Notes: a model not told the origin generated them from the sequence alone. DNA of 64,000 bases from Minisyncoccota bacterium (GCA_036405895.1 DASWWS010000002.1:20903-84902); one strand, 5' to 3'; counted from the first letter of the stretch, positions 10,242-37,662 are shown. Numbers and translations: made by a program.

Positions 10242-10299
10242 AGTGGGGTAACTATAGCAAAAATAGGCTTATTTTTCAATTCCTTACGTAGATGAAGGA

Positions 10300-11073: not shown

Positions 11074-11390
11074 GAATACTGAGTGAAAATAAAAAAAACC
11101 CCGGTCAGATTGACCGGGGTTTTCATTTGCTGAAATTCATCAGGAGTTTTTTCTCTGCGAACAGTGGTAACCATTGCAAACCACAATAGCGCGAGGGCAA
11201 TGGCTGTCAGGCGCACCGTGATAGATGCGCGCCTTATCCACATTCCCAATAGGGCTGCGTACATATGAGCCGAGAGCGCACACAATACAATAAGGCAGCT
11301 AATAAGAGGGTTTTCAGGAATGTCTGCGCAAATAATCAAGACAAATCCGAGCGCTAAAAAGCGATAGAAACGTTCAACAAGTATTTCCAT
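11070..11390 (-). CDS. hypothetical small membrane protein (about 106 aa from ATG 11390)
   Basis: three predicted TM helices; ORF reads through the 11093-11125 terminator hairpin at its 3' end, so extent is uncertain; track ORF start 11477 would include the rpoD terminator. Confidence 0.3.
   Translation of the reverse strand: MEILVERFYRFLALGFVLIICADIPENPLISCLIVLCALSAHMYAALLGMWIRRASITVRLTAIALALLWFAMVTTVRREKTPDEFQQMKTPVNLTGVFFIFTQYS
11093..11125 (+). terminator. rho-independent terminator after dsbA-like gene (bidirectional)
   Basis: aaaaaaaa-ccccggtcagattgaccgggg-ttttc. Confidence 0.7.
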
Positions 11391-11440
11391 AAGAGGGGCG
11401 ATTTCACAGCACTCTACTCTTCTGCGGATAAAAGTCAATA

Positions 11441-11468
11441 CAAAAAGCCCCGAGCTCGGGGCTTTTTG
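11441..11468 (-). terminator. rho-independent terminator downstream of rpoD (palindromic, bidirectional)
   Basis: aaaagccccgagctcggggcttttt. Confidence 0.7.
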
Positions 11469-11609
11469 TATCCTCACTAAGCGAGAGAAAAATAAGTATA
11501 GTCCTTGAGAACGGTCTAACGCAGGCTGACTGAGCCGAGTTGGAGCAAAATTTCAGCAGAAATTTATGCGTGCCGTTCGAGAGGAGCTATACTTATTTTT
11601 CTTGAGCGC

Positions 11610-12992: not shown

Positions 12993-13041
12993 AAAATGAG
13001 TGCATAGCTATCATCAGGGAAATGGGGGTAAAAGTCAACTC

Positions 13042-14754: not shown

Positions 14755-14760
14755 TGCGCT

Positions 14761-17700: not shown

Positions 17701-18387
17701 TTTTGGAAGGTCGATATCTTTAAAGAGTGCAAAGATTGCTTCAGCTCCAATGCCCGCTTCAAAAGCAGAACCGTACTTGAGTGAGTAGTGGTGGTATGCA
17801 AGTTCAGTAAGCACCTTACCAACGCGAAGTTCGGCAATTTCTTTCTTTGTGTTTGTCAGAAGTGTGCGAAGCTTTTCGCGAGTCTCTTCATCAGCCGCGC
17901 CTTTGAGCTTGTTTTTGAATTCAGCATCAAGGTCGGTGATAATGCGAGCGCGTTCTTCTTCGTGCATTACAGTCACGATATATCCTGCAAAGTACACTAC
18001 CTTTTCAAGGTCAGAGAGCGATACTCCAAGAAGTGTGGACATACGGCTTGGTACTCCGCGCAAGAACCAGATGTGCGCAACCGGGCTTGCAAGCTCGATG
18101 TGGCCCATGCGGTCGCGGCGAACAATAGACTGCGTTACTTCAACGCCACACTTTTCGCAGATAATCCCTGCGTAGCGAATGCGCTTGTATTTTCCACAGT
18201 AACATTCGTAATCCTTTTCAGGTCCGAAGATGCGCTCATCAAAGAGCCCGCCTCGTTCGCTTCGTCCGGTACGGTAGTTGATAGTTTCAGGCTTGGTAAC
18301 TTCGCCGAAAGACCATTCGCGAATGCGCTCTGGGCTTGCGAGCTTGAGAGAGATTTGATCAAAATTTGTTGTGTCGAGTGTTTTCAT
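14761..18387 (-). CDS. rpoC: DNA-directed RNA polymerase subunit beta'
   Basis: 1208 aa; zinc-binding CxxC..CxxC N-terminus, NADFDGDQM catalytic loop. Confidence 0.95.
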
Positions 18388-18406
18388 ATATGTGTGTGAG
18401 AGGATA

Positions 18407-24030: not shown

Positions 24031-24102
24031 AATAATACTACGTAAGCAAAAATAGTCAATAGATTTCTCGCCTTCACAGCTTTGCTGTGGTACAGTATTC
24101 GA

Positions 24103-26058
24103 ATGCAAAACTCACCTACTGTTCACTCTCTTGCCGCAGGCAGCCAATTCGAAGGCCCAATTAATATTTCGACGAAAGGAGTCGGCTATGTAAAAGTCCG
24201 CGACCTCGGCCTTACTATAGAAGTGCCGCGCGAGGCGCTGAACCGCGCATTCCACTACGACACCGTCAAAGTTGAAGTTACCTCCCTTCCTACCCCCAAC
24301 AGCACAAGTCCCAACCCGCAAGGAAAAGTGCTCGACATCGTCAAGCGCGCAAAGGTGGGCTATTCCGGGACCCTTTCATTTGAAAACGGCAATCACTGCA
24401 TCGTCACCAACGACGGCCGCATGTACACCGCTATTACTATCCCTGGCGACAAGCTCGGAGGCGCCGCACAAGGCGACAAAGTATTCTGCCGCATCAGCGA
24501 CTGGCCCAACCCGCAAGGCGAGCCAACGGGCGAGATCACCCGCGTATTAGGAAAGCCGCTTGAGAACAATGCAGAGATGCTCTCTCTTGCGCTTGAGAAG
24601 GGCTTTAGCGACGACTACCCAGAAGCGGTATTGAAAGAAGCGCATGATATTGCCGACCACGGAATCACCGAAGAAGAAAAAGCTTCCCGCCGCGATTTCC
24701 GCGACACTGTCACCTTCACCATCGACCCTGAAGATGCAAAAGACTTCGACGATGCCATTTCGGTAAAGTTCCTTGAAGATGGCAATACCGAAATCGGCAT
24801 TCACATTGCAGATGTATCGCACTATGTGCGCCCTGGCACGGCAATTGATAAAGAAGCATCCGACCGTGCAACAAGTGTGTACCTCGTCGACCGCACTATC
24901 CCTATGCTCCCGGAAGTCCTTTCAAACAATCTCTGTAGCTTGATGCCAAATGTCGACCGTCTCACCTTCTCGGCTGTATTCGTATTTCGGCCCAACATGG
25001 AAATCGTGAGCGAATGGTTTGGAAAAACAGTAATCCACAGTGCCCACCGCTATAGTTATGAAAGCGCGCAGAAAGTTTTGGATGATAAAGAAGGACCGTA
25101 CCTCAAAGAGCTCGAAGCTTCTCTTGCAGTGGCGCAATTTCTCGAACGAGAGCGCTTTGTCAACGGTGCAATTTCGCTTGAAACAACAGAAGTAAAATTC
25201 AAGCTCGATGAAATGGGTGTTCCTATCGGCGTCTACACCAAAGAGCGCGGCCCAACGCACCACATGATTGAAGAATTGATGTTGCTTGCCAACCGCAAGG
25301 TTGCAGAGTTTGTTGCGACCCGCGACAAGCACGCCGACGAAATATTCGTCTACCGCATCCATGATACGCCGGACCCTGAGCGCGCAGAAACGCTGATGCT
25401 CTTTTTGAAACGCCTTGGGTACAAGCTCACCGCAGACGAGCACGGAGTTATTCCTTCAAAACAGCTCAATGAGCTCGTGCTTTCATTGGAGGGCAAGCCT
25501 GAGCGCGAAACAATCCAGACAGCAATCGTGCGAAGCATGGCAAAGGCTATTTACTCTACAAAAAATATCGGCCACTACGGCTTGGCATTTGAATACTACA
25601 CGCACTTCACCTCTCCTATCCGCCGCTACCCCGACCTTATGGTGCACCGCCTTATACACGAGTACCTCCAAAACAACACCATTTCAAAAGACACCTGGGA
25701 CTATTATGAGAAAATGTCCGGGCACTCTTCAATGCGCGAAAAGGAAGCGTCAGATGCAGAGCGCGCAAGTATTAAGTACAAGCAGACCGAGTACATGTCT
25801 ACCCGAATTGGGCAGATGTTTGACGGTACTGTCACCGGCGTATCGCAAAACGGCATGTTCGTGGAAGAAAAGCTCACCAAGTGTGAAGGCATGGTGCGCA
25901 TGCGCGATATCGGCAACGACTACTTCGAATATTCCGAACGCGAGCTCGCCCTCATCGGCCGCAAGAGCAAAAAAGAATACCGCATCGGAGACTCTGTCCG
26001 CTTCCGCGTTGTTTCGACCGACCTTGCAAAGCGTCTTATCGACTACGCATTAGTATAA
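24103..26058 (+). CDS. rnr: ribonuclease R / RNase II-family 3'-5' exoribonuclease
   Basis: RNB catalytic block FTIDPEDAKDFDDAISV...GIHIADVSHYV; N-terminal cold-shock-like and C-terminal S1 (DGTVTGVSQNGMFVE). Confidence 0.9.
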   Translation: MQNSPTVHSLAAGSQFEGPINISTKGVGYVKVRDLGLTIEVPREALNRAFHYDTVKVEVTSLPTPNSTSPNPQGKVLDIVKRAKVGYSGTLSFENGNHCIVTNDGRMYTAITIPGDKLGGAAQGDKVFCRISDWPNPQGEPTGEITRVLGKPLENNAEMLSLALEKGFSDDYPEAVLKEAHDIADHGITEEEKASRRDFRDTVTFTIDPEDAKDFDDAISVKFLEDGNTEIGIHIADVSHYVRPGTAIDKEASDRATSVYLVDRTIPMLPEVLSNNLCSLMPNVDRLTFSAVFVFRPNMEIVSEWFGKTVIHSAHRYSYESAQKVLDDKEGPYLKELEASLAVAQFLERERFVNGAISLETTEVKFKLDEMGVPIGVYTKERGPTHHMIEELMLLANRKVAEFVATRDKHADEIFVYRIHDTPDPERAETLMLFLKRLGYKLTADEHGVIPSKQLNELVLSLEGKPERETIQTAIVRSMAKAIYSTKNIGHYGLAFEYYTHFTSPIRRYPDLMVHRLIHEYLQNNTISKDTWDYYEKMSGHSSMREKEASDAERASIKYKQTEYMSTRIGQMFDGTVTGVSQNGMFVEEKLTKCEGMVRMRDIGNDYFEYSERELALIGRKSKKEYRIGDSVRFRVVSTDLAKRLIDYALV

Positions 26059-26067
26059 TTTGAAATA

Positions 26068-27078
26068 ATGTTCTGGCGTCTCCTTTTAGTTGTTATAGCT
26101 CTTGGAGTGAGCACGATTGTGTTTTCTTTTGCGTACCCGCTGACGCCCGGCACTGGTATGCGCAGCAAACTTACCCAACAAGAATTTCCCAATGACATTA
26201 TAGTGGGGTGGGTTGGCGACATGGTGCCAAGCCGGGACAGTACGTACAACCATGCAGTGCTTTCTTTTGTCGCACCGGCGCTCGTTGCGCCTGACCTCAT
26301 GATCGGCAACCTCGAAGGCACCTTTGCCGCTGAGAACCGATCAAGCAAGTGCATCTACCTCCTGAACCGCTGCCATGCATTTCGCGGAGACGCGTCATTT
26401 GCGGAAGGATTGAAAACTGCGGGCTTTGATTTTGTAAGTCTTGTGAACAACCACTCATACGACTACGGCGAGATGGGGCTTGCCGATACTACTGCTGTCC
26501 TTGATGCCGCTGGCATCCCCTATGTCGCACCAAACAAGCCCTTTACTAGTATTACAGTGAAAGGAAAGCGTATTGGCATCCTCGGCCTTTCCAGCACCGA
26601 GCCAACGCGCACCATCACCGACTATGATTTTATAAAAAATACCGTTGCAAAACTAAAGCAAGAAAATGATTTCGTCATCGTCATCTTCCACGGAGGAAAC
26701 GAAGGGTCTGACAAAACAGCGGTACCGGGTGTGAACGAATACATGGGTACTGAAGACCGCGGCAACGTCCAGCTGGTGGCATACACTGCAATTGATGCAG
26801 GTGCAGACCTCGTGCTTGGCTCAGGCCCGCATGTCTTGCGCAAAATAGAAACATATAAGGGCAAGAAAATTGCGTACTCGCTTGGCAACTTTGTCGGCGG
26901 CAACGGAAGCCTTGTCACCAGTGGCACGCTTGGCCTCTCCGGCATTTTCACTTCCACACTCTCGTACGACCACAGCCCCGACCCAACATTCACCTCCGTC
27001 ATCCTCACCAAAAACGGCACACCGACACTCGACCCATTGAACCGCGGCAAAGACCTCATTGAGCAATTGTCGCAATAG
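26068..27078 (+). CDS. CapA/PgsA-family metallophosphatase-like protein (membrane-anchored)
   Basis: N-terminal TM; GDxxxxR, VNNHSYDYG (NNH), FHGGNEG motifs characteristic of the CapA family. Confidence 0.7.
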   Translation: MFWRLLLVVIALGVSTIVFSFAYPLTPGTGMRSKLTQQEFPNDIIVGWVGDMVPSRDSTYNHAVLSFVAPALVAPDLMIGNLEGTFAAENRSSKCIYLLNRCHAFRGDASFAEGLKTAGFDFVSLVNNHSYDYGEMGLADTTAVLDAAGIPYVAPNKPFTSITVKGKRIGILGLSSTEPTRTITDYDFIKNTVAKLKQENDFVIVIFHGGNEGSDKTAVPGVNEYMGTEDRGNVQLVAYTAIDAGADLVLGSGPHVLRKIETYKGKKIAYSLGNFVGGNGSLVTSGTLGLSGIFTSTLSYDHSPDPTFTSVILTKNGTPTLDPLNRGKDLIEQLSQ

Positions 27079-27079: not shown

Positions 27080-27108
27080 AAAAGCCGTATCAATTGATAC
27101 GGCTTTTA
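27080..27108. terminator. bidirectional rho-independent terminator
   Basis: aaaagccgtatcaattgatacggctttt between convergent capA-like and 27113..27523 genes. Confidence 0.7.
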
Positions 27109-27112: not shown

Positions 27113-27523
27113 CTATCGCGGGCACAGCAGGCGTTGCCATTCCTCGGGTGAAATGCCCGGCCGTCTGATGCGCCGAGAGGAGTACACAGGGTATGAGCTT
27201 CTTGTTACAGCCCTCCTTGAAACAGTTGCTGTCCGGGGGCGATTTCTGCTTTGTTCAAGCAATAGCGCAAGCGAGTCGCGCTCCATATAAAGCCGCGTCA
27301 CTTCTGCTCGAGCATAGGCAAGCGCTTCTTTAAGCTCCTCAACTTCCCTATTTCGATTTTTGGGAATGGTGATTTCAACAAGCGGCTTTTTTATCTTTGC
27401 CACCGTCGGCTCCGAAAGCTCTCGCTTGCGAACGCCCCAGTACCATACTCCCCATACAATTACTGCTGCTAGTGCGAGCAGTGCAATAAACTTCAAAAAT
27501 CCTTTTGCTGATCCGTTTGCCAT
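27113..27523 (-). CDS. hypothetical membrane-anchored coiled-coil protein
   Basis: 136 aa; TM near N-terminus, Arg-rich C-terminus; no family assignment. Confidence 0.4.
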   Translation of the reverse strand: MANGSAKGFLKFIALLALAAVIVWGVWYWGVRKRELSEPTVAKIKKPLVEITIPKNRNREVEELKEALAYARAEVTRLYMERDSLALLLEQSRNRPRTATVSRRAVTRSSYPVYSSRRIRRPGISPEEWQRLLCPR

Positions 27524-27760
27524 ATTCAGTTGTATTAAGTGAACGATTGCTTCTTGGCGGTATAATGCCGATATCTATCCCCGAAGTCAATAAAAATAGT
27601 CGTACCACCACTTGGGTGATACGACCGGTTTTCTCTCGCCTGTCGGCAAGAAAAATGGGCAGATTAGCTTTTTTCTGATGCGAGCTGTCTCATAGCGTAT
27701 TTCCCTCAGTGTACTCCTCTGTCACTAAAGTGCAAATAAAAAAAATAAACTAGATATGTC

Positions 27761-28282
27761 TTACATTGACGGCAGACCAAGACGATTTAATGTAATTCCT
27801 TCAAATTCATAATCGCACTCAACTTCTTTAATATAAGCGAGTACGTCTTTATATGCGGGAGCTTGGAACCATTCACTTAGGATATAAATATATTCAACTT
27901 GAACACCGAGTGCATTTAAAAGTTTTTCATACTGTCGTTTCTTAAAATGACAAGTTTGTAATTTCTCATCTACTGATCCAGCAACATTCTGGAACTTAAT
28001 TTCAATCACAAAAAATGTATTTGTATTTAATACTAAAATAGCATCATCAGGAAGAAGTTTTTTGGAGAGAATTTCCCTATGATTTATACCTTTTCTTTCA
28101 AGAAATTTATATAAGGTGTTTTTTCGAAGATTAAGAGCAACTACTTCTCCATTAAATAAAATAGAGCCATCATCCTTAACCTCATAACCCGGCATCGTCT
28201 TAAGAACAGTAAGAAAATCAACCCTACCTTCAAAATGCATTCCAGATTTTGTATTTCCGCCCCCAACACCACCAAGCTTCAT
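27761..28282 (-). CDS. short PD-(D/E)xK nuclease, likely N-terminally truncated DpnII/MboI-family (GATC) restriction endonuclease
   Basis: 173 aa; LPDDAILVLNTNTFFVIEIKFQNVAGSVDEKL resembles DpnII catalytic block FDFVIKNEQGELYLIEVNFYSGSGSKLNE (recalled from memory); N-terminus GGVGGGNTKSG resembles DpnII mid-region DTNGRKNRTG; full-length family members are about 280-290 aa. Confidence 0.5.
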   Translation of the reverse strand: MKLGGVGGGNTKSGMHFEGRVDFLTVLKTMPGYEVKDDGSILFNGEVVALNLRKNTLYKFLERKGINHREILSKKLLPDDAILVLNTNTFFVIEIKFQNVAGSVDEKLQTCHFKKRQYEKLLNALGVQVEYIYILSEWFQAPAYKDVLAYIKEVECDYEFEGITLNRLGLPSM

Positions 28283-28361
28283 ATCGATCAGATTACCATT
28301 TAAGGCTTCTCTGTCAATAAATTCACTTACCTAGGAATCTAAGGGTGCAACTGATAAAATC

Positions 28362-29210
28362 ATGTTTATGAAAGTGACGAGAAAAGTAAAGCCATTTCTT
28401 AAATGGGTTGGGGGCAAGGGCCAATTACTGGAGCAATTCGAAAATATTTATCCAAAGAAATTCAATACATATTACGAACCTTTTATTGGTGGGGGTGCTG
28501 TTTTCTTTTCTATTAACCCTAAGAAGGGTGTTATTAATGACATTAATCAAACTCTAGTTAATACATACAAGAATATTAAAAATCAGCCCGAAAAGTTAAT
28601 CAGGTCCCTTAAAAAAATTGAGAAAGATTTTATAGCTAAAAATGAGGATGATCGTAAGGAGTATTATTATTTAATTCGAGATAAATATAATCGGCTTTCT
28701 TCTGAAGATTTCAACCGTAGCGTCTACTTTCTATTTTTAAATAAGACAGCCTTTAATGGTGTGTACCGAGAAAATTCAAAAGGAGGTTTTAACGTGCCGA
28801 TAGGCAGCTATAAAAATCCTAAAATTGTTGATGAAGAAAATATATTAGCAATCTCAAACACATTAAAGAATACGAAAATTACGTGCTCCTCTTTTGTTGA
28901 TGCGGTAAAAAATGCAAAGTCAGGAGATTTTGTATATTTTGATCCCCCCTATTACCCCTTATCTAAAACTTCGCAATTCACTAGCTATAGTAAAGATTCA
29001 TTTTCAGAAGAAGATCAAATTAAACTTCGCGATCTATTTGTTCAGTTAGATAAAAAAGGTGTTTACGTGATGCTCAGTAATTCAAGCGCCTCTTTTATAA
29101 AGAAAATCTATGCTGGATATACCCAAATCCCTGTATATGCTAATCGCATGATTAATTCAAAGTCAGATAGGCGAGGAAAGATATCAGAAGTAGTTATTAT
29201 TAATTATTAA
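28362..29210 (+). CDS. Dam-family (alpha-class) N6-adenine DNA methyltransferase, probable GATC specificity (DpnM/M.MboIA-like)
   Basis: KPFLKWVGGKGQLL, EPFIGGGAVFF (motif I), NGVYRENSKGGFNVPIGSY, FVYFDPPYYPL (motif IV), FTSYSKDSF - near-diagnostic Dam signature. Confidence 0.9.
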   Translation: MFMKVTRKVKPFLKWVGGKGQLLEQFENIYPKKFNTYYEPFIGGGAVFFSINPKKGVINDINQTLVNTYKNIKNQPEKLIRSLKKIEKDFIAKNEDDRKEYYYLIRDKYNRLSSEDFNRSVYFLFLNKTAFNGVYRENSKGGFNVPIGSYKNPKIVDEENILAISNTLKNTKITCSSFVDAVKNAKSGDFVYFDPPYYPLSKTSQFTSYSKDSFSEEDQIKLRDLFVQLDKKGVYVMLSNSSASFIKKIYAGYTQIPVYANRMINSKSDRRGKISEVVIINY

Positions 29211-30021
29211 GTTTTATAAGATCTTCAAAACGTTTTCGAGAAAGTTCTAGATATTTTTTCTCCATATCAATACCAATAAATTTCCTTCCATGTTTTTTTG
29301 CAGCAATCCCAGTTGTTGAGCTTCCTGTAAAAGGGTCAAGAACAACGTCCCCCTTATTTGTACTTGCTAATATAATCCTCTCTAAAAGAGATAATGGTTT
29401 TTGAGTTGGGTGTTTGGTAAATTTTTTTTCTTCTTTTTTAGGAGGATGAACTGCCCATACTGAACGCATTTGAAGATTAGGTTTTTTAATAAAATCTTCA
29501 GACCATTCGCCATTTTTCATCAAATCATAATTGAATATATGTTTTGCTTTTTTATCTTTGCGAGCCCATAAAATAGTTTCATGACTTGCAGTAAAAAACC
29601 TACAACTAAGATTAGGTGCTGCATTTGGTTTAAACCAAGATATGTCATTAAGCATATGAAATCCAATTGACTGGATAGCATGCCCACATTGATAAATAGA
29701 ATGATACGTACCACTAACCCAAATGGTGCCATGCGGCTTAAGAACACGATGGCATGCATTGAGCCATTTTTCGTGGAAGGCATAATCGCTGGCAAAACCC
29801 TTACTCTTATCCCATTCCCCCTTATTAACACTCACCATCTTTCCTGCATGGACTGTAAAACCATTATTTGAAAGCATATATGGAGGGTCAGCAAAAATCA
29901 TATCAATTGAATCTTCAGGGAGTGAATTCAAAAGTTCTACGCAGTCACTCAGGTAAAGAACGAAGTCTTTACCTGAGTAATGTGGCTTATTTTTAACATT
30001 TCTAAGTATTCTCTCAGGCAT
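29200..30021 (-). CDS. beta-class N6-adenine (or N4-cytosine) DNA methyltransferase, DpnA/M.MboIC-like second methylase
   Basis: IFADPPYM (motif IV) near N-terminus then VLDPFTGSSTTGIAA (motif I) near C-terminus = beta permutation; long collinear similarity to DpnA as recalled (KHPTQKP..LERIILAST). Confidence 0.85.
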   Translation of the reverse strand: MPERILRNVKNKPHYSGKDFVLYLSDCVELLNSLPEDSIDMIFADPPYMLSNNGFTVHAGKMVSVNKGEWDKSKGFASDYAFHEKWLNACHRVLKPHGTIWVSGTYHSIYQCGHAIQSIGFHMLNDISWFKPNAAPNLSCRFFTASHETILWARKDKKAKHIFNYDLMKNGEWSEDFIKKPNLQMRSVWAVHPPKKEEKKFTKHPTQKPLSLLERIILASTNKGDVVLDPFTGSSTTGIAAKKHGRKFIGIDMEKKYLELSRKRFEDLIKLNN

Positions 30022-30166
30022 TACGTATAGTTTAACTTATTAAAATGAACTTAACATAAAAAATTGTTAAATTATATATAAATTACCCATAAGATCCACA
30101 ATTTATACTAACCCGCACAGGACACAAAAGCCTCTTTAAGTAGAAGTTTTTGTTATAATAATAGAA

Positions 30167-31348
30167 GTGATTAGACTATTAAAAAACGATGACAAGCTTA
30201 TTTTAAGTTACTCTACAGATAATCCATGGTTTCGTGACCGACTACGAAATGGACAAGATATTTCTCTTAAAAAGAGAGCATTTATCCTATCAAAAAATGA
30301 TATTTCTAAACAAGATATTGATGATGATGGCGCTGATGTAGAATTTATTCTTGGAAATTTAATTGAGGGTCAATATTTTAAAATTGAAGGTAGAAAACTA
30401 GGGATTAATCAGGATGTGTACATAGACAAAAATGTAGAAATAACAGAAAGTTTCTTTCTTGGAGTAAGAGACATCCCCATATTTCAAAAAATTAGTAGGG
30501 TAGTAAATGAAGACATTTATATTGGAGGTAAACTAGAGGAGTCTATACCCCTGGAGGAATTTGAACAGTTACTTAAGAATTTTCCAAATTCCTATGAAAT
30601 TGCAAAATATCTGGACGCTCGTCTCGCTTCTGTATTAAGTAACTATTTCGATTCTTCATCAAATGTAGAAGCGAAATATCAGCGCTACATGAACAAAAAA
30701 CAAAGTATCAAAGGCGAGGATTTACCTGAACTTTTTAAAGAGAGAGAAATAGTCAAGTACGAAACAATTCTCGAAAAACTCGAACTGATGCTTTTAAATC
30801 AAAATAAATATAACGAAAAACAGTGGCAGAAAGAAATACTCGAAATAATTCTACTTTTGTATCCTAAATATATTTACGCATTTGAAGAAGCCCCTATTCG
30901 GGATCAGTATCAAAGTAAGGATAGAAAGATTGATTTCCTACTCATTGATGCTAACGGAAACACGGACATTATTGAAATCAAGCGACCATTAAACGAAAGG
31001 ATTATCACAAAAGGACGGTATCGTGATAATTACATACCACTAAGAGAGTTATCTGGAACAGTGATGCAGATTGAAAAGTATATATATCATCTTAATAAAT
31101 CTGGGCAGACTGGCGAGAATAGATTGACCACGAAGTATAAGAGTAAGCTACCTGCTGATTTCAAAATAAAGATTACCAATCCTGGTGGAATGATTATCAT
31201 GGGAAGAGACAATCTTCTTTCTCGTGATCAAATGGAAGATTTTGAAGTGGTAAAGAGAAAATACAAAAATGTAATTGATATCATTACCTATGACGATCTC
31301 ATAAGAAGACTGAAATCTATTATTACAGCTTGGAAAAATAGAGCTTAA
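30167..31348 (+). CDS. Shedu-like defense nuclease (DUF4263 PD-(D/E)xK domain at C-terminus), GTG start
   Basis: 393 aa; C-terminal block KIDFLLIDANGNTDIIEIKRP (D...ExK) followed by VMQIEKYIYHL (Q..Y) as in DUF4263/SduA; N-terminal about 230 aa unassigned. Confidence 0.6.
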   Translation: MIRLLKNDDKLILSYSTDNPWFRDRLRNGQDISLKKRAFILSKNDISKQDIDDDGADVEFILGNLIEGQYFKIEGRKLGINQDVYIDKNVEITESFFLGVRDIPIFQKISRVVNEDIYIGGKLEESIPLEEFEQLLKNFPNSYEIAKYLDARLASVLSNYFDSSSNVEAKYQRYMNKKQSIKGEDLPELFKEREIVKYETILEKLELMLLNQNKYNEKQWQKEILEIILLLYPKYIYAFEEAPIRDQYQSKDRKIDFLLIDANGNTDIIEIKRPLNERIITKGRYRDNYIPLRELSGTVMQIEKYIYHLNKSGQTGENRLTTKYKSKLPADFKIKITNPGGMIIMGRDNLLSRDQMEDFEVVKRKYKNVIDIITYDDLIRRLKSIITAWKNRA

Positions 31349-31353
31349 ACTTA

Positions 31354-33285
31354 CTACAGGACAATAATTTCCCACTGATTTTGATCTATATCACTAAGAT
31401 TAGCAGTATACCTATCATTATGGATAGCAACACAAAGAAGATGCGTTGGTCGAGATAATCCAACATACATCATTTTTGTAGACTCTTTATGGTAAATTCG
31501 AGCGTCGTTAAATACCGTACCCTTGAATTGTGGACTTAACCTTTGTGACTCGTATGCAATAGTTCTTTGTTGGTGGTAATTTGTTTCAAGATAAAGAGTT
31601 GCTGTATGTGTTTGACCCTTAACTGAGTGAATAGTTGCAACTTCAACTTTGATACCGTCGCCATTATAAATATTTGGAGACTCTTCCACCTCAGTATTAT
31701 AAATTGGTGTTCCAGCATGAGGAGTATCAATAAATGTCCTGCTTTCCGCTATCTCTTTGCCAAACAAGGCAAGTAGGCTGACTAAATAGGTCTTTATATC
31801 AGTAAGAACCTGATCCTTTTGTCCTTTGATAAGCCTAAAACTCCACTCAGCTAATTTTAGCTTAAAAGAATCGTATACCTCCTCATCTTGCTCACTTAGA
31901 AAGCTTAGAAACTTTTGTCGTGTATAAAATCTATCATTCTCGTCAACAATATTTTCCAAACGTAATATTCTTATAATAGCGTTAATTATATTTTTCTTAA
32001 AAGGCTCAAAAGTTTTTTCCCCAGCCTTTATATTAGAGAGATAGGCCTCAAGGCAGTCACAGTCTATTTTGGGTTGTCTTGCATCTTTAGAAAAAGTTGG
32101 GTGGTAATCACCGATTCTGGTTTTATTTGCTTCAACTTTAGTATTCCAACCGATAGCTCTATATTTATTTTTTGGAGAGTTAGTTATCTTCCCCTCATCT
32201 TGGAAAGCCTTAATCATTTCTGCAAATCTTGATATAACTTGAGAAATATTTGCATCCGTATAAACAATTATATGAGGTTTAATATCTATCTCAGATCCAT
32301 CACCATTCTTCATATGCCCAACAATGGCTATATTTTGTAGACCAAAAGGTACAACAACCTGTGCGATCTTAGGATTAAGGCGGTGGCTACCATTCAACTC
32401 TAAGACGGTAGGTCTATCAACCCATTGAGTATTCGCTTTAGCGGAATCGCTAAAAATTGATTGATTCTTGTCTCCGATTCGTTGATAGACTGACTCACTA
32501 GCACCTTCGCTGTAAAAAAGTTTTTCTAGGATATCATATTGAAGAGAGTCCATATCTTGAACCTCATCAACAAACACAAAGCGGAATCTTTTCTGCAAAA
32601 GAGTTTTAATTTGAGGATATTTATCAATCGCCTCAAATGCCAAAATAAATGCGTCCTCAAAACTGAGATAGCCTTTTTCTCTGAGTTGCTTTTTAAGAGC
32701 CAGGATTGCAACAGCTGTAGCATTGGTAGTATCTGCAAAAGTAGGAACGGGTGGATATCCGCTTGCGAGCAAGTCATTTGGATGTAGCTTGATATTAAAC
32801 AGCTTAGACTCATCACTTGTTCCAAATTGATGACCTAGCCATGCCCTTGCGGGTCCAGGCACATATTGTGACTGATAATAAGATTGATCGTCGATACGAA
32901 AAACTTTCTTTCCATATTTATTCACATAAAAAGGCGTTGCGATAAATTTATCAACAAATATCTGGATTGTTCCAACAAAGTTTGGGTAACTGAACAAATG
33001 TGAACAATATTTGCCAATCTTGTCTTTGATTTCGTCAATCGCAGCGTTCGTATGAGAAATGACTAAAATACCTGAGCCATCAGCAAAAGGTAGGTATCTA
33101 TCAAGTATTAAAAGCTTTGCTAGGAGTGCCGTTGTCTTTCCACTACCAGGAACAGCTTGTAGATCTAGAATCTCAAGATTGGTGATAAAATCACGTCGCT
33201 CCTGATCAAAATGTTGTCCATCTGGAAGCAGTATTGATTCAGCATAAGCAATATCATCTTCCGTAACATTAAGAGTTTGAGGCAT
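31354..33285 (-). CDS. gajB: Gabija GajB-like UvrD/PcrA-type superfamily-1 helicase
   Basis: 643 aa; Walker A AVPGSGKTTALLAK, motif II FVFVDEVQD; overlaps gajA-like gene by 17 nt. Confidence 0.75.
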   Translation of the reverse strand: MPQTLNVTEDDIAYAESILLPDGQHFDQERRDFITNLEILDLQAVPGSGKTTALLAKLLILDRYLPFADGSGILVISHTNAAIDEIKDKIGKYCSHLFSYPNFVGTIQIFVDKFIATPFYVNKYGKKVFRIDDQSYYQSQYVPGPARAWLGHQFGTSDESKLFNIKLHPNDLLASGYPPVPTFADTTNATAVAILALKKQLREKGYLSFEDAFILAFEAIDKYPQIKTLLQKRFRFVFVDEVQDMDSLQYDILEKLFYSEGASESVYQRIGDKNQSIFSDSAKANTQWVDRPTVLELNGSHRLNPKIAQVVVPFGLQNIAIVGHMKNGDGSEIDIKPHIIVYTDANISQVISRFAEMIKAFQDEGKITNSPKNKYRAIGWNTKVEANKTRIGDYHPTFSKDARQPKIDCDCLEAYLSNIKAGEKTFEPFKKNIINAIIRILRLENIVDENDRFYTRQKFLSFLSEQDEEVYDSFKLKLAEWSFRLIKGQKDQVLTDIKTYLVSLLALFGKEIAESRTFIDTPHAGTPIYNTEVEESPNIYNGDGIKVEVATIHSVKGQTHTATLYLETNYHQQRTIAYESQRLSPQFKGTVFNDARIYHKESTKMMYVGLSRPTHLLCVAIHNDRYTANLSDIDQNQWEIIVL

Positions 33286-35098
33286 AACGTATTGCTTTTA
33301 TTAAGTAGCTTATAGTGTCAGCTTCATCGTCCTTATTAATAGTGACTAACGATGTAGTGTTTTGAAAATTCTTATCTAAAAGATTAGCAAGCTTATAGGC
33401 GATTTCTGTTTTCTTTAAGCCTTTATTGATCAACTTTTCGGCTAGTGATTTTTCAAAATCATCAGTCCAATTTGTTCCTGTATGAATAGCCTCAACAACC
33501 ATTTTAAAACTATCAGATAGACAACTCGAGTTTAGAAGTGAGTATTCTAAGGTCCACTGTGGAGCAACAAAGAATTTTACATTCTCTTCTGATCTAGCCT
33601 CTATAGTAGGAATTTTAGCTATTGTTTCTGCCTCTACCGTAGCTGTATCAATCTTTGCAAACTCATATTGATTTTTCCCCGCTACCTTAACTGGCTTACC
33701 ATCGCCGTCTAACACCAAATCTTTCTGGTATCTTGGCACGTCTACATCAGTCACAACAGCAACAGGGATATTCATCGGACTACCACTTTGTCTCAAAAAG
33801 ATATTCGTATAATTTGAAAATCCTAGATTCCCAATATTAATAACGGTGACACCTTTTTCTGTTAAATCGATACCCATCTTTTTTGCAATACTCGGTATCA
33901 AAATCTCTTCTGCCCACCCCTCTACCAAAATGACACCTTTGGCAAAAAATAAATTTGCTTTTGTTGTATCAAGAAACTTTTCTAAAAAAACGTATTCTTT
34001 TTGATCGAGCTTTGTATATTCTGAACCCATTGGAAAAGCAGCGCCGTCTTTGCAAACTATTAGATGTTTAAGTTTTACCTTAGAAGCGAGATTGGGGCTG
34101 TGAGTAGTCAGTATAAGCTGAATATCCTTTTGAGCCTGAAGTACCTCTATAACCTGCATTTGAGCCTGAGGATGCAAATGTGCCTCTAACTCTTCAATTA
34201 AGCCAAGTCGTAAGCCATTCCAATTTGGTTTATTCAGGTGAAGTAACTCTGACGACATAAACAACTTGTTCAATGTTCCTAAGCCTGGGTTAATTACGCC
34301 CTTGAGCGAAAGCTCCAGTCTTTCAAGAATATTTTTCAGTTTTCCGTCATTAACTGTAAAAACAGATTCACGATCTGGGTGATAAAAAGACTGAATGTAC
34401 TTATCTATTTCATTTTTCAAATCCTGTCCTTTTAGATCACCAATAGCGACATCATCAGTGTCTTTTCCTTCAAAATATTTTTCAATCGAAGTATTAAAGT
34501 GTTTGAATATTTCAATTAGAAGGTGGTCATCTTTCTTGCCTTTAAAAGCATCATGTCCCTGAAGAATCTGGGACAATCGAGAGTTCTTTTTTGGAACCAA
34601 TTCTGATTCAGCATCTCGCAATGGTCGTAGATAAGTACTCTTCAAATAATCTCTGGCTTCTGCGTTTAGGGTAACCCCTTCTGTATCTACACCAGCTTTT
34701 ATGTCATAAGGAAATACCTGCTCTGATCCAGCACTTCTTTTTACATCCAATATTAATCTAAGAAAGCATTGTGCATCTTCTCCTTCACCGGTCCAACCGA
34801 GCCAATCAATAAAGTTCTTTGCTTCCTGAAGATTTAAATCAATGAACATTAGCTCAATCCTAAAACGAGAACTATTACCGAAGAAGTCATCTTGTTCTGC
34901 TCGAATCCAGTCAAAACTGTGAGTCTTAAGTGTAAGTTTTATAGCGTCTATAATTGCTGATTTTCCTGAATCATTCTCACCGATAAGAACATTCAATCCC
35001 TTGGTGAGGTTAAGGTCTAAATCTGGAGAATCAAGATTGAAATCAGTTGGTTTTCCATATTTTCTAAAATTCCATAACTTGATATTTGCTAGATACAT
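33269..35098 (-). CDS. gajA: Gabija GajA-like OLD-family nuclease (ABC ATPase + TOPRIM)
   Basis: 609 aa; Walker A LIGENDSGKS, ABC signature/D-loop IEELEAHLHP, H-loop LILTTHSP, TOPRIM glutamate VILVEGWAEE and DxD VVTDVDV. Confidence 0.8.
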   Translation of the reverse strand: MYLANIKLWNFRKYGKPTDFNLDSPDLDLNLTKGLNVLIGENDSGKSAIIDAIKLTLKTHSFDWIRAEQDDFFGNSSRFRIELMFIDLNLQEAKNFIDWLGWTGEGEDAQCFLRLILDVKRSAGSEQVFPYDIKAGVDTEGVTLNAEARDYLKSTYLRPLRDAESELVPKKNSRLSQILQGHDAFKGKKDDHLLIEIFKHFNTSIEKYFEGKDTDDVAIGDLKGQDLKNEIDKYIQSFYHPDRESVFTVNDGKLKNILERLELSLKGVINPGLGTLNKLFMSSELLHLNKPNWNGLRLGLIEELEAHLHPQAQMQVIEVLQAQKDIQLILTTHSPNLASKVKLKHLIVCKDGAAFPMGSEYTKLDQKEYVFLEKFLDTTKANLFFAKGVILVEGWAEEILIPSIAKKMGIDLTEKGVTVINIGNLGFSNYTNIFLRQSGSPMNIPVAVVTDVDVPRYQKDLVLDGDGKPVKVAGKNQYEFAKIDTATVEAETIAKIPTIEARSEENVKFFVAPQWTLEYSLLNSSCLSDSFKMVVEAIHTGTNWTDDFEKSLAEKLINKGLKKTEIAYKLANLLDKNFQNTTSLVTINKDDEADTISYLIKAIRYASNS

Positions 35099-35167
35099 GA
35101 TGGGCTGATTCTAGCATTTTCAGAGATGTTTTTGAAATAAAAAATGTCTTAAAATAAATTTCATGTC

Positions 35168-36847
35168 CTAATACCCTCCCTGCGGTTGCTCGGGCTTTGG
35201 CGCATCAGGGTCGTCGGCGATGGCGACGTCGGTTGTCAGGAGGATGCCGGCGGCTGAGGCTGCATTCTGCAGTGCTGTGCGGGTGACTTTAACCGGGTCA
35301 ATGATTCCTTTTTTCATCATTTCGACTAGTACAAAATCGCCAGAGAGTGTATCTGCCCCTGCGTCATAGCCAAATGCATTCTCGGACTTCTGCACTGCGT
35401 CCACTACAAGAGACGGATCTGTGTGGCCTGCATTGTGTGCAATTTGCCGCAATGGTGCAGTGAGTGCATCAGTGAGTGCCATGTAGCCTGCCATGAATTC
35501 AGACTCGTGCTTATCTGTCGCAGACTTTTTGTAGCGCGCACTCTTGAACATTGCACTAGTGACAGTGCCAGATACTTTTGCAAGCGCCACTCCGCCGCCG
35601 GGCACAATTCCCTCTTCGATTGCAGCTTTGGTTGCGTTGACTGCGTCTTCGATTTTGAGCTTAAGATACTTCATCTCTGTTTCTGTTGCAGCCCCTACAC
35701 GAATAACTGCAACACCGCTGGTTAGCTTTGCGATGCGCTTTTCGAGGTGGTCGCGGGTGAACTTATCGAGCTTGCTGCCGCCTACTTGAGTGAGCTCTCC
35801 TTTGATAGCGTCAACACGTTCTTTGATAGCACTCTTCTTTCCTTTGCCGTCTACGATGACTGTTTTCTCTTTTGTTGAAATGACTTTGCCAGCTTTACCC
35901 AATACAGAGGTGTCTGCTGTCTCAAGCGCGATGCCAAGCGCATCAGTCACCACTGTTGCACCAACAAGCGCTGCAATGTCTGCAAGCTCTCCTGCCTTGC
36001 GGTCGCCAAACCCTGGGGCCTTGATTGCGAGAATATTGAAAATGCCGCGGATTTTGTTTAATACGAATGTCGTGAGTGCTTCGCCGTCGATATCTTCGGC
36101 AATAATCACCAATTCTTTTTTACCCGCAGCTGCGAGTTTCTCAAGAAGCGGAAGGACGTCCTTAATAGCAGAAATCTTTTTGTCGGTCACCAATACGGGA
36201 ACAGTGGTGTAGCTCGCCTCTCCGCGCTCTGCATTGTTGATCATGTAGTGCGAGACGAAGCCTTTGTCGAATTCCATTCCTTCTACCACTTCGCTTGTGA
36301 CACCAAACACTTGGGACTCTTCTACTGTCACCACGCCGTCAGTGCCAACCTTATCTATAGTACTTGCGATGATGCCGCCAATTTCAGTACTCTCGGCAGA
36401 AATGGTTGCAACCTGCTTGATCTCTTCTTTGTTTTTTACTGGGCGCGCCATGCCGCGAAGCGCCTCTACAACATCTGCGGCTGCAGCTTCAATGCCTTGG
36501 CGAAGTATCAGGCCATTTGCACCGGCGCCAATGCGCTTTACGCCTTCTGTGGCGATAGCGGCCGTGAGTACTACTGAGGTGGTAGTGCCGTCTCCTGCCG
36601 TGTCATTGGTCTTGCTTGCGACTTCTTTGATAATTTCGGCTCCCATGTTTTCGAACTTGTCGAGAAGCGTGATTTCGCGCGCGATAGAGACGCCGTCGTT
36701 GGTGATCATCGGCGCGCCGTATCCTTTATCGAATACGACATTTCGCCCGCGGGGGCCAAGCGTGATGCGCACTGCATCCGCTACTGTATTGAGTCCTTTT
36801 GTGAGCGCTTCTTGCGCTTCGATGCCGTGTAAGATTTTCTTTGCCAT
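35168..36847 (-). CDS. groL: chaperonin GroEL (60 kDa)
   Basis: MAKKILHGIEAQEALTKGLNTVADAVRITLGPRGRNVV...; full-length; C-terminus ends PKPEQPQGGY (no GGM repeat tail). Confidence 0.95.
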   Translation of the reverse strand: MAKKILHGIEAQEALTKGLNTVADAVRITLGPRGRNVVFDKGYGAPMITNDGVSIAREITLLDKFENMGAEIIKEVASKTNDTAGDGTTTSVVLTAAIATEGVKRIGAGANGLILRQGIEAAAADVVEALRGMARPVKNKEEIKQVATISAESTEIGGIIASTIDKVGTDGVVTVEESQVFGVTSEVVEGMEFDKGFVSHYMINNAERGEASYTTVPVLVTDKKISAIKDVLPLLEKLAAAGKKELVIIAEDIDGEALTTFVLNKIRGIFNILAIKAPGFGDRKAGELADIAALVGATVVTDALGIALETADTSVLGKAGKVISTKEKTVIVDGKGKKSAIKERVDAIKGELTQVGGSKLDKFTRDHLEKRIAKLTSGVAVIRVGAATETEMKYLKLKIEDAVNATKAAIEEGIVPGGGVALAKVSGTVTSAMFKSARYKKSATDKHESEFMAGYMALTDALTAPLRQIAHNAGHTDPSLVVDAVQKSENAFGYDAGADTLSGDFVLVEMMKKGIIDPVKVTRTALQNAASAAGILLTTDVAIADDPDAPKPEQPQGGY

Positions 36848-36848: not shown

Positions 36849-37145
36849 TTATTTGATAATCGCTAATATCTGGTCTTCGCGCAATATATAGTATTCGATA
36901 CCGTCTACTACTATTACTTCCGGGCCGTATTTGGAAAACAATACTTCGTCTCCCACTTTTACCTCAACAGGAATTGCTTCTCCTTTGTCGTTCTTTCGAC
37001 CCTTGCCCACCGCTGTCACTACTCCGCGCTCCGGGCGCTCTTTGCCAGCGGTGTCTGGAATAATAATCCCTGAGAGGGTTTTCTTCTCTGTTACCACGCT
37101 TACTACCACGCGGTCAGCAAGCGGAATGATTGTTGTCTTTGCCAT
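36849..37145 (-). CDS. groS: co-chaperonin GroES (10 kDa)
   Basis: MAKTTIIPLADRVVVSVV...GIIIPDTAGKERPERGVVTAVG; ATG at 37143-37145 (track ORF extends further upstream). Confidence 0.9.
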   Translation of the reverse strand: MAKTTIIPLADRVVVSVVTEKKTLSGIIIPDTAGKERPERGVVTAVGKGRKNDKGEAIPVEVKVGDEVLFSKYGPEVIVVDGIEYYILREDQILAIIK

Positions 37146-37197
37146 ATGCACACAGTATATAGGAAAGCGCGGGTATAAAAAATCCAAATAAAAAAAC

Positions 37198-37662
37198 TCA
37201 CTTTCGTGAGCCTTGTTTGATTCGGTGGGCATAATATATTGATGCCATGCGCAAAAGCGACAGCATCATGCCAATAGTGAGCACCACTGCACTTGCATAG
37301 ACAAATCCGTTAAACGGAAAGTACAACAACAGCAAGCGAAAGAGTGCTCCGAAAATAAAACTTCCCATAATGCAGGTGTAGCAGAACCGCACGATGTAGT
37401 ACCCCAAGAACGTGTTCATTACCGGAAAAATCACTGATTCGGGAGCGTCGTCCCACGGCATGAAAACGACAAGAAGAATGCTGTACATGATAATCAAGCC
37501 TATTTCCAGACCAAAGGAGGTGAGGAACAGTACTTTTTTTGCATAATCGAGGTCGTGGAGCTGTACCACTTGAACAATCCGCATGATGCAAAACAAACAG
37601 AGGAAAATGCAGATGAAGCGAGCAATGGCGACACTTGTCCGCGGAGAGGTATTTTCTTTCAT
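37198..37662 (-). CDS. hypothetical polytopic membrane protein (154 aa, 4 TM)
   Basis: hydrophobicity only. Confidence 0.4.
   Translation of the reverse strand: MKENTSPRTSVAIARFICIFLCLFCIMRIVQVVQLHDLDYAKKVLFLTSFGLEIGLIIMYSILLVVFMPWDDAPESVIFPVMNTFLGYYIVRFCYTCIMGSFIFGALFRLLLLYFPFNGFVYASAVVLTIGMMLSLLRMASIYYAHRIKQGSRK

Follow-up and report, generated by a model that had tools for sequence, protein, structure and literature searches.

Core defence hotspots such as cDHS1 and cDHS2 of P. aeruginosa are chromosomal sites at which fixed core genes flank variable low-GC cargo. Some of these sites are empty and no recombinase is found with them, and exchange of the cargo by homologous recombination through the conserved flanks has been proposed (PMC10250203). 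The 'minimal mobile elements' of Neisseria likewise place variable cargo between conserved flanking genes (cited in PMC4269198). Published surveys have found few defence islands in CPR genomes (25 in 3,004 MAGs; PMC12259885).

We describe a site that shares these traits in a member of the Paceibacteria (CPR/Patescibacteria). The window, by which we mean the whole 64-kb stretch of DNA that was analysed, is annotated at its source as 'Candidatus Paceibacterota bacterium', and the best matches to its GroEL are in Paceibacterota/Minisyncoccia MAGs. Within it, six adjacent low-GC genes very probably form a recently acquired defence cassette of three independent systems, each of a known kind, in a lineage-specific hotspot; the cassette would have entered just after the stop codon of groEL, with the PGA_cap/RNase R block of the chromosome on its other side. 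An earlier note on this DNA had proposed a compact defence island of an R-M module, Shedu and Gabija with no integrase or transposase; the analysis below supports that proposal and horizontal acquisition of the island. The site differs from the core defence hotspots in its much smaller cargo (~3–7.5 kb, with two of the four contigs stopping before the cargo does; the median there is 26 kb), in its genome-reduced CPR host, in lying within the groESL transcription unit, at its 3′ end, and in the seven sites sampled.

Extent and content of the low-GC tract

In 500-nt windows the G+C fraction is 0.45–0.55 on either side and 0.29–0.39 across ~27,500–35,200. The drop, from about 0.50 to 0.29–0.39, extends from ~27,720 to the groEL stop at 35,168. 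Windows of 100 nt place the edges at 27,650–27,750 (left) and 35,150–35,250 (right), and in 2-kb windows the tract is the sole stretch of the 64 kb with G+C below 0.43. GC3 separates the six tract genes (0.21–0.30) from RNase R, PGA_cap, hyp136, groEL and groES (0.48–0.59). The abrupt shift of composition that the earlier note had seen from about 27,700 to the groEL stop is therefore borne out by both measures and is the only such stretch in the window; the stop position that it gave for groEL (35168–36847, minus strand) and the limits that it gave for a 136-aa ORF (27113–27523, minus strand) also hold.

Homology breakpoints agree with the composition. Nucleotide homology to the relative L139 breaks off precisely where groEL stops (35168) and picks up again at ~27,718, in a conserved non-coding block. 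Between these points lie exactly six ORFs. The features of the locus are as follows.

26068..27078, plus strand: PGA_cap-family gene, conserved left flank (Pfam PGA_cap, 137 bits)
27113..27523, minus strand: hyp136, membrane-anchored hypothetical protein, a fast-evolving flank gene (GC 0.516, host-like)
27524..27718, minus strand: conserved non-coding block at the left edge (alignment with L139)
27719..35167, no strand: low-GC cargo, ~7.45 kb, bounded by the stop codon of groEL and by the non-coding block conserved upstream of hyp136 (GC profile, homology breakpoints)
27761..28282, minus strand: small PD-(D/E)XK nuclease, 173 aa, PF20472/PDDEXK_11, full length, probable restriction endonuclease of the R-M trio
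28362..29210, plus strand: Dam-family (D12, alpha-class) N6-adenine DNA methyltransferase, 282 aa (Pfam, TIGR, PADLOC)
29200..30021, minus strand: beta-class N6_N4 DNA methyltransferase, 273 aa, CcrM/HinfI/DpnA-like (Pfam, PADLOC)
30167..31348, plus strand: SduA (Shedu), 393 aa, of the E. coli SduA type (PADLOC, Pfam, PDB)
31354..33285, minus strand: GajB, UvrD-like SF1 helicase, 643 aa (PADLOC, Pfam, motifs)
33269..35098, minus strand: GajA, class 2 OLD-family ATPase-TOPRIM nuclease, 609 aa (PADLOC, Pfam, motifs)
35099..35167, minus strand: AT-rich junction of 69 nt from the groEL stop to the gajA start, with a promoter-like site and without a terminator-like hairpin
35168..36847, minus strand: groEL, conserved right flank (TIGR02348, 633 bits)

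As the earlier note had observed, none of the six ORFs is an integrase or a transposase. There is no tRNA gene nearby, and a search of the island ends for direct or inverted att-like repeats returned only short chance matches. Megablast of the island against plasmid and phage collections gave no match, and Rfam searches, which took in the whole window as well as the island with its flanks, returned nothing but one tRNA elsewhere.

The restriction-modification genes

DpnII-type cassettes (DpnM, DpnA and R.DpnII; also MboI and LlaDCHI) combine a Dam-class methyltransferase, a beta-class methyltransferase of the HinfI/CcrM/DpnA kind and one small nuclease, and the three leftmost genes of the island have the same composition. 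They differ in that the present nuclease belongs to the uncharacterised family PF20472 and not to Pfam DpnII. R.DpnII is ~100 aa longer than the 173-aa nuclease, and the gene order and orientations of the DpnII operon are unlike those of the present trio.

The Dam-class methyltransferase scores 230 bits with Pfam MethyltransfD12, 306 bits with TIGR00571 (dam) and 344 bits with PADLOC MTase_II, and carries the motifs FIGGG (41–45) and DPPY (194–197). Among solved structures it is closest to DpnM/M1.DpnII (2DPM), at 259 bits; E. coli Dam reaches 155 bits. The beta-class gene is convergent with it, their 3′ ends overlapping by 11 nt. This second enzyme scores 214 bits with Pfam N6_N4_Mtase and 339 bits with PADLOC MTase_II, has the motifs DPPY (45–48) and FTGS (231–234), and is closest among solved structures to CcrM (6PBD, 217 bits). 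With SAM-binding and catalytic (D/S)PPY motifs in place and HMM scores of 214–344 bits, both methyltransferases look active.

The nuclease had been described as a truncated REase, which does not hold. PF20472 is a large family of ~172–177-aa PD-(D/E)XK proteins, so that 173 aa is full length; nearly all homologues among the best matches listed are 170–186 aa, and every invariant residue is kept. The protein has the PD-(D/E)XK fold and motif. PDDEXK_11 is the sole Pfam model returned, at 19.7 bits (E=7e-4), below the curated threshold of 23.7, and the Pfam DpnII family model does not match; the PADLOC hit (E=3e-3) is also sub-threshold. No NCBIfam match was found, nor any close relative among solved structures or characterised REases. 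In five of the five genomic contexts examined, PF20472 members adjoin an N6_N4 methyltransferase. This conserved neighbourhood and the fold suggest that the nuclease is probably the cognate restriction enzyme of the trio. The three genes would then form a type II R-M system, in which two adenine methyltransferases mark host DNA and the PF20472-family nuclease cuts DNA that is unmarked.

A different reading takes the three genes as two orphan or regulatory methyltransferases beside an unrelated small PD-(D/E)XK nuclease (e.g. of a repair, nicking or toxin type). The scores below curated thresholds, the lack of an NCBIfam match or close solved REase and the differing orientations of the three genes would suit it; we consider it unlikely.

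Taking the trio as an R-M system, its target would most likely be GATC. One lead is DpnM as best solved relative of the Dam-class enzyme; the other is the neighbourhood of the Neisseria dam/drg GATC locus (PMC4269198, PMC6789123). In N. gonorrhoeae, decayed homologues of the beta-class methyltransferase (55%) and of the nuclease (46%) lie directly after drg, and the methyltransferase at the Neisseria locus is named 'DpnIIB-like' in the literature (PMC4269198). GATC and GANTC word statistics were tried as a test of specificity and rejected. GATC is depleted in host DNA (observed/expected 0.60, z = -5), and because it is just as depleted in L139, where the module is absent from the site, the depletion does not discriminate.

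Shedu and Gabija

As in E. coli Shedu, the Shedu gene of the island stands alone and encodes a C-terminal DUF4263 PD-(D/E)XK domain with a D...EIK motif, preceded by a domain homologous to the end-binding clamp of EcSduA; the difference is one of setting, a CPR genome and a position between an R-M module and Gabija. The PADLOC SduA model (PDLC00388) matches at full length with 480 bits (residues 1–392 against model positions 1–399 of 402). Pfam SduA_C scores 127 bits over residues 215–379, a region that holds the D-rich strand IDFLLID (255–261) and EIK (270–272). Among solved structures the closest is apo EcSduA (8PS4), at 276 bits over residues 49–390, and the N-terminal part scores 76 bits against the N-terminal fragment 8PS6 (8PS4, 8PS5 and 8PS6 being EcSduA structures; Loeff et al., bioRxiv 10.1101/2023.08.10.552762). 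By homology to EcSduA, the protein would be a tetramer in which the N-terminal clamp recognises free dsDNA ends and the PD-(D/E)XK domain nicks DNA near the end. The gene is convergent with gajB, 5 nt apart.

Gabija was reportedly defined by Doron et al. in 2018. GajB of B. cereus has ~494 aa, against 643 aa for the present GajB. A Gabija structure is available from B. cereus VD045, and the TOPRIM active site of BcGajA consists of E379, D432 and D434 (PMC10781630). The island genes resemble Gabija in forming a two-gene operon with an overlap (17 nt), in which GajA joins an ABC-type ATPase to a C-terminal TOPRIM domain and GajB is the adjacent UvrD/PcrA/Rep-like SF1 helicase of the class 2 OLD arrangement, and in matching the PADLOC models end to end; they differ in sequences that are far from B. 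cereus GajA and GajB.

GajA scores 740 bits with PADLOC GajA PDLC00099 (1–608 of 626) and has the Pfam domains AAA_15 (1–338), the N-terminal ATPase, and OLD-like_TOPRIM (384–453). The Walker A motif GENDSGKS (40–47) and the segments VEGWAEE (392–398) and TDVD (450–453) are invariant in 19 homologues, and the conserved Glu and DxD of TOPRIM are present along with Walker A. By sequence its best PDB match is a class 2 OLD C-terminal region (6NJV). It is very distant in sequence from B. cereus GajA (27.7 bits, E=1e-5), and GajB gave no match to the B. cereus GajB sequence. Foldseek with an AlphaFold model of GajA gave 14 significant matches, all 14 to B. cereus GajA; the model is poor (pLDDT 62, TM 0.2–0.3), so this support is weak. 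For GajB, PADLOC GajB PDLC00146 gives 776 bits, PDLC00131 gives 693 bits (3–641 of 647) and Pfam UvrD-helicase gives 84 bits; helicase motifs I, II and III are present as PGSGKT (46–51), DEVQD (240–244) and GDKNQSI (271–277). This Gabija subfamily occurs commonly among the Bacteroidota, with named homologues there ~60% identical. By homology, GajA and GajB would assemble with each other, as in the 4:4 GajAB complex of Gabija, and cleave the DNA of phages.

PADLOC and the other HMM searches thus succeeded in placing the two methyltransferases, the Shedu-type DUF4263 nuclease and gajA/gajB in the families first proposed for them. For the proposal that all six genes are immune-type, the HMM support is strong for five and weak for the sixth, the 173-aa nuclease. 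The expectation that any novel or variant system would most likely lie in this tract was not borne out: Shedu and Gabija match PADLOC models end to end at 480–776 bits and every island gene is assigned. We see here no new system but an ordinary defence island, at a site prone to exchange of its cargo, and our understanding of Gabija, Shedu and R-M systems is unchanged. Homology is the basis on which all three systems are assigned a putative anti-phage activity.

The same site in relatives

The comparison covers four occupied sites, with four different cargos, and three empty ones, most of them from single metagenomic contigs. The empty sites, at which groEL adjoins PGA_cap, are in relatives with 64–76% identical GroEL. 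In L145 the two genes are convergent and 26 nt apart, with full synteny on both sides; the P0133 contig has ~450 nt between them, and L091 has ~560 nt without an ORF.

Closer relatives (GroEL 88–97% identical) keep the flanks and hold other low-GC defence cargo. L139/L140 carry PDC-S11 (490 bits) and a type II methyltransferase; L141 carries PD-Lambda-5, with 170 bits for A and 362 bits for B; and L142 carries a type I methyltransferase, a PARIS-like AriAB (270 bits), Bro-N and T5orf172. The L141 and L142 contigs end inside the cargo, before the far flank. These cargos have G+C fractions of 0.34–0.37 against 0.48–0.51 in their flanks. By amino acid identity, GroEL is 96–97% conserved in L139 and L141 and 88% in L142, and PGA_cap is 85% conserved in L139. 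Species-level relatives with flanks 83–87% identical in nucleotides are without the cargo of the window, and outside its source population (runs SRR11449179-88) we found no relative with the same six genes at the site. GTDB species representatives, sought by way of GroEL, were set aside as comparators since they are too distant (<=60% identity) and have only the upstream synteny in common.

No recombinase gene or fragment, integrase, transposase or att mark occurs at the four occupied sites within the sequence available. A junction alignment of the four cargos with two terminator-bearing sites, one of them empty, revealed no shared insertion motif.

Origin of the cargo

The earlier note had left a choice between an old integration and a hotspot beside groESL. 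The hotspot is favoured because in relatives this position is either empty or taken by other defence genes. The other part of the choice, in which the cargo is an old integration or a set of vertically inherited genes that are merely AT-rich in look, can appeal to the absence of mobility genes and to the tight gene packing; but the GC3 of the six genes lies far from that of the host, showing therefore no drift towards the host value, and relatives with flanks 83–87% identical in nucleotides carry other cargo where three more distant ones are empty, so that we regard it as very improbable. Mis-assembly, the joining of a foreign low-GC fragment into a host contig, might be suspected from the abrupt GC switch in a metagenome-assembled genome. 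It is hardly credible here: contigs that were assembled separately, from no fewer than eight sequencing runs (SRR11449179-88), contain both junctions again, the right junction coincides exactly with a stop codon and leaves the start of the downstream gene intact, and cargo of the same low-GC kind occupies the site in other relatives.

The cargo might instead be what decay has left of a site-specific mobile element, either integrative or a fragment of a satellite or prophage, that entered behind groEL and whose recombinase has since been lost. Mobile elements frequently bring in defence islands (PMC10250203, PMC12259885), a homologue of the R-M trio (77–86% amino acid identity) lies beside a large serine recombinase in the Patescibacteria contig L134, and the Bro-N and T5orf172 genes in the cargo of L142 are typical of phage or mobile-element DNA. 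Against these points stand the four occupied sites free of recombinase genes or fragments in the sequence available, the absence of flanking direct repeats and of any motif common to the four cargo junctions, and a coding density that leaves no room for a pseudogene; we think this origin unlikely. For the recently acquired cassette in a hotspot, the route that we favour is DNA uptake followed by homologous recombination within the conserved flanks, since recombinase, att site and repeats are all absent. We infer it purely from this absence of mobile-element marks, and the exchange proposed for the core defence hotspots would fit here too. The modules move independently, the trio recurring in L134 and the closest GajAB (93% and 86% identical) in another genomic context, L143.

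Transcription and wider reading

A promoter scan of the 69-nt groEL–gajA junction found a promoter-like TTCAAA-17-TAGAAT at 35136–35108 on the minus strand, and a terminator scan found none. A G+C-rich hairpin with a T-run directly follows groEL in the empty site of L145 and in L144, whose contig stops ~100 nt beyond groEL; it is absent from the occupied sites. As no terminator follows groEL here, gajAB may be transcribed by read-through from the groESL operon.

A broader joint reading is tentative and, taken whole, doubtful. It would make groEL–PGA_cap a recombinase-free core hotspot of a CPR genus, swapped through its flanks and served by groESL read-through, and at the same time make PF20472 a GATC-specific REase family that replaces R.DpnII, with a DpnA-like partner that protects ssDNA. 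Cassettes would be swapped by DNA uptake and flank recombination, the cargo coming to lie between the groEL stop codon and the operon terminator, so that the stress-inducible promoter of groESL would also drive co-oriented defence genes (gajAB) by read-through. The PF20472 nuclease may replace R.DpnII in a DpnII-like two-methylase cassette, and its partner of the DpnA kind could shield single-stranded DNA as it enters the cell, in a lineage presumed to rely on DNA uptake.

The locus suggests that, in a CPR bacterium with a reduced genome, a dedicated, fast-turnover slot for phage defence is maintained beside an essential operon, and groEL and PGA_cap/RNase R can be used as anchor genes for mining defence cargo in Paceibacteria metagenomes. 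PF20472 is a widespread family of small PD-(D/E)XK proteins, likely restriction enzymes. Defence-annotation models score it only marginally, and automated pipelines would therefore probably call both methyltransferases orphans.

The left edge

A bidirectional hairpin terminator (27080–27107) lies just after the PGA_cap gene, and beyond it hyp136 might be counted as cargo, since nucleotide homology to L139 already ends at 27,086. We rejected this assignment on account of its host-like GC, a weakly similar gene at the same position (E=4e-4; 151 aa, beside PGA_cap in L139) and the conservation in L139 of the block upstream. HMM searches with hyp136 returned no family match. A 136-aa gene of L139 is unrelated to hyp136 despite its equal length.

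The conserved non-coding block matches no Rfam family. It comprises a terminator-like hairpin (27626–27598), then a promoter-like site (27590–27562) for hyp136, and a further ~70 nt that are conserved. Relative to L139 the hairpin is kept with one compensatory change (T-A to C-G) and TTGACTT is invariant; the folding z-score of the block is -3.5.

A variable site after groEL

Between groEL (35168-36847, minus strand) and hyp136, a 136-aa ORF (27113-27523, minus strand), GC falls to 0.29-0.39 from ~27,500 to ~35,200, against 0.45-0.55 on either side (500-nt sliding window). At 2-kb resolution this tract is the sole low-GC stretch of the 64-kb window; in 100-nt windows its transitions lie at 27,650-27,750 and 35,150-35,250. 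It is nearly filled by six ORFs, whose third-position GC is 0.21-0.30, while RNase R, PGA_cap, hyp136, groEL and groES have 0.48-0.59. Nucleotide homology with L139, a contig from a host relative, stops exactly at the groEL stop codon and picks up again at ~27,718, inside a non-coding block upstream of hyp136 that the two share. Because of these breaks, and since hyp136 belongs to the flank, we place the cargo at about 27,719-35,167. The earlier note had described an abrupt AT-rich island at 27700-35167, reaching the groEL stop and lacking integrase or transposase. The compositional tract is there, the limits agree with those from homology, and no recombinase ORF was found in it, nor flanking repeats at its ends nor a tRNA nearby. 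Contigs that were assembled separately, out of at least eight sequencing runs, show the same arrangement with both junctions, so mis-assembly is unlikely.

Source annotations give Candidatus Paceibacterota, and among species-representative genomes the best GroEL matches are Paceibacterota/Minisyncoccia MAGs at ~60% identity. Upstream of the site the synteny of RNase J, SBP_bac_5, SecG, groES and groEL is widely kept.

Contents of the site after groEL in relatives (contig; GroEL identity; content)
L145, 419-kb contig; 76%; empty, groEL-PGA_cap gap 26 nt, gene order identical in both directions as far as rpoBC
P0133; 76%; empty, groEL-PGA_cap gap ~450 nt
L091; 64%; empty, groEL-PGA_cap gap ~560 nt, without ORF
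L139/L140; 96%, flanks 83-87% identical in nucleotides; PDC-S11 (490 bits) and type II methyltransferase
L141; 97%; PD-Lambda-5 A and B (170 and 362 bits) and PD-Lambda-3-like gene
L142; 88%; Bro-N, T5orf172, type I methyltransferase, fused AriAB/PARIS-like ATPase (270 bits)

The closer relatives keep both flanks, and a different cargo begins directly after the groEL stop, with GC of 0.34-0.37 in L139-L142 against 0.48-0.51 in their own flanks. None of the six window cargo proteins was found in L139-L142. The groEL-adjacent site is variable, and the window's cargo is compositionally foreign and missing from species-level relatives. The defence hotspot beside groESL that the note had offered as one reading is favoured by the comparison: relatives hold at this position either an empty site (three) or other defence cargo.

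Cargo genes

Genes of the cargo (coordinates, strand, assignment)
27761-28282, minus; small nuclease, 173 aa; marginal HMM matches to PDDEXK_11 (E=7e-4) and PADLOC REase_II (E=3e-3)
28362-29210, plus; Dam-family methyltransferase; TIGR00571, 306 bits
29200-30021, minus; beta-class N6_N4 methyltransferase; 214 bits; closest is CcrM, 217 bits
30167-31348, plus; SduA (Shedu); PADLOC SduA full length, 480 bits; Pfam SduA_C
31354-33285, minus; GajB; PADLOC GajB end to end, 776 and 693 bits
33269-35098, minus; GajA; PADLOC GajA end to end, 740 bits; AAA_15 and OLD-type TOPRIM domains

These profile matches uphold the two methyltransferases, the Shedu-like DUF4263 nuclease and the gajA/gajB pair of the earlier note, the last two with their motifs kept. 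Its truncated restriction enzyme does not stand, the 173-aa nuclease being full length: it has 3,946 homologues in a large protein collection, the best ones listed nearly all of 170-186 aa, and in an alignment of 32 it holds every invariant residue, including P78-D79...E94-x-K96.

Probable restriction-modification trio. Both methyltransferases keep the SAM-binding and DPPY motifs; the best solved relative of the Dam-family enzyme is DpnM (259 bits; E. coli Dam, 155). In every genomic context looked at, the nuclease family adjoins an N6_N4 methyltransferase, and a Dam-class gene is usually there too.

Contexts of the nuclease family
Campylobacter pinnipediorum; N6_N4 methyltransferase adjacent
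Oscillospiraceae MAG; N6_N4 methyltransferase adjacent
L134, another Patescibacteria contig; same trio, 77-86% amino acid identity
N. gonorrhoeae dam/drg locus; beta-class methyltransferase (55%) and nuclease (46%) homologues after drg, both frameshifted

With methyltransferase motifs kept, the nuclease complete and its family found beside methyltransferases, the trio is in our reading probably a true type II R-M system. Its overall build resembles the DpnII cassette, whereas its nuclease comes from a different, uncharacterised family. Its target is most likely GATC. GATC depletion in the host (O/E 0.60, z = -5) was considered as evidence of specificity but discarded, because it is equally strong in L139, which lacks the module at this site.

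The rarest 4-nt palindromes in the host part (1-27718 and 35168-64000) are CTAG (O/E 0.43), GATC (0.60) and AATT (0.72); L139 shares the GATC depletion (0.59), and L142 (1.06) and L091 (0.96) do not.

The Neisseria beta-class methyltransferase at dam/drg has been termed 'DpnIIB-like', and its locus the GATC-related NgoAXI site (PMC4269198, PMC6789123). In N. gonorrhoeae NZ_CP119142.1 (a chromosome-sized record in the plasmid collection; 2197-4535 of L146) the frameshifted N6_N4 methyltransferase and nuclease homologue, neither annotated, directly follow the DpnI-like drg, so the locus seems to hold remnants of the same kind of Dam, beta-methyltransferase and small nuclease cassette.

Shedu. 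The closest solved structure to SduA is 8PS4 (276 bits, residues 49-390), and the N-terminal fragment 8PS6 also matches; both are E. coli SduA, where a clamp at the N-terminus binds free ends of dsDNA, and nicks are made close to the end by the PD-(D/E)XK domain (Loeff et al. preprint). The D...EIK motif is found in the window protein.

Gabija. gajA and gajB overlap by 17 nt. The Walker A motif, TOPRIM Glu and DxD of GajA are invariant across 19 homologues; together with the ATPase and TOPRIM domains they are the traits by which GajA, a class 2 OLD nuclease, has been described (PMC10781630). GajB has helicase motifs I-III. The solved B. cereus proteins are very distant: GajA matches at 27.7 bits, with a class 2 OLD C-terminal region scoring better, and GajB gave no match. 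The AlphaFold model of GajA is poor (pLDDT 62); all 14 significant Foldseek matches are still B. cereus GajA, a ranking that weakly supports a similar predicted fold. The subfamily has more than 7,000 proteins at E <= 1e-50, the named homologues being ~60% identical and mostly from Bacteroidota.

Exchange and transcription

Neither a recombinase nor an att site was found, and the junctions share no motif; the most economical way to exchange cargo would therefore be homologous recombination through the conserved flanks. For the core defence hotspots of P. aeruginosa, which are recombinase-free, the same route has been suggested (PMC10250203). The modules also occur elsewhere, the trio beside a serine recombinase in L134 and the closest GajAB (L143) in a different neighbourhood; that the window's cargo is a decayed mobile element we consider quite improbable, and prefer exchange through the flanks.

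A G+C-rich terminator lies right after groEL in L145 (empty) and L144, and is missing from occupied sites. Reading on from groEL in the window, one first meets a terminator-like hairpin at 27,626-27,598, within the conserved block. Given both, gajAB, co-oriented with groEL, 69 nt downstream and with its own promoter-like site, could also receive read-through from groEL.

Relation to known systems

Shedu, Gabija and type II R-M are familiar systems. For CPR genomes, catalogues of defence systems and of a few defence islands exist, with the highest density in Paceibacteria (PMC12259885), and core hotspots between conserved genes are established (PMC10250203). New are groEL and PGA_cap as an anchor pair in a Paceibacteria lineage, the completeness of the small nuclease, whose family is widespread, uncharacterised and linked to methyltransferases, and the DpnII-like make-up of the trio. 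The boldest reading, a recombinase-free, groESL-coupled hotspot together with a new GATC restriction-enzyme family, is rather improbable.

Flanks and additional observations

The ~195-nt non-coding block upstream of hyp136 (27524-27718, minus strand) is kept in L139, where the coding sequence beside it has diverged past blastn detection. It holds a 12-bp hairpin with U-run (27626-27598) that is preserved in L139, where one change is compensatory. A promoter-like TTGACTT is invariant, and ~70 nt of other sequence are conserved; the block's folding z is -3.5, and Rfam gave no match. hyp136, membrane-anchored and coiled-coil-like, matched no family. It shares 30% identity over 80 aa with the same-position L139 gene (151 aa), where neighbouring genes share 85-96%. 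This weak similarity and its host-like GC mark it as a flank gene, not cargo, and one that evolves unusually fast.

In L134 (ENA ERZ650244 NODE_1, Patescibacteria, 405 kb; 6822-20525) the trio adjoins a large serine recombinase, and beyond it lie a CHAT-domain protein, a 980-aa protein and several more without Pfam match, and a fusion of ParB_N with an N6_N4 methyltransferase; the stretch may be a further defence island carried by a mobile element and includes unassigned genes.

L144 (Logan SRR24403449; GroEL 78% identical; 11686-11787) stops ~100 nt after groEL, just past the terminator, which would fit an assembly that broke off at a variable site.

In L091 the usual ranking is reversed, RNase R being 85% identical to the window protein and GroEL only 64% (window 24082-27078 and 35168-36847), which points to a GroEL that evolved fast or was replaced in one lineage. 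In some relatives with RNase R at 72-76%, no groESL separates PGA_cap from SBP_bac_5 and RNase J, which come straight after it (L099, 10876-14794); in L093 (1640-8397) unrelated housekeeping genes come after PGA_cap; the position of groESL thus varies across the wider group.

The longest groES ORF (36849-37232, minus strand, 127 aa) overlaps an upstream 154-aa ORF (37198-37662, minus strand) by 35 nt, and its Cpn10 domain starts at residue 35. In L141, L142 and L145 groES is 98 aa, so the true start here is probably internal.
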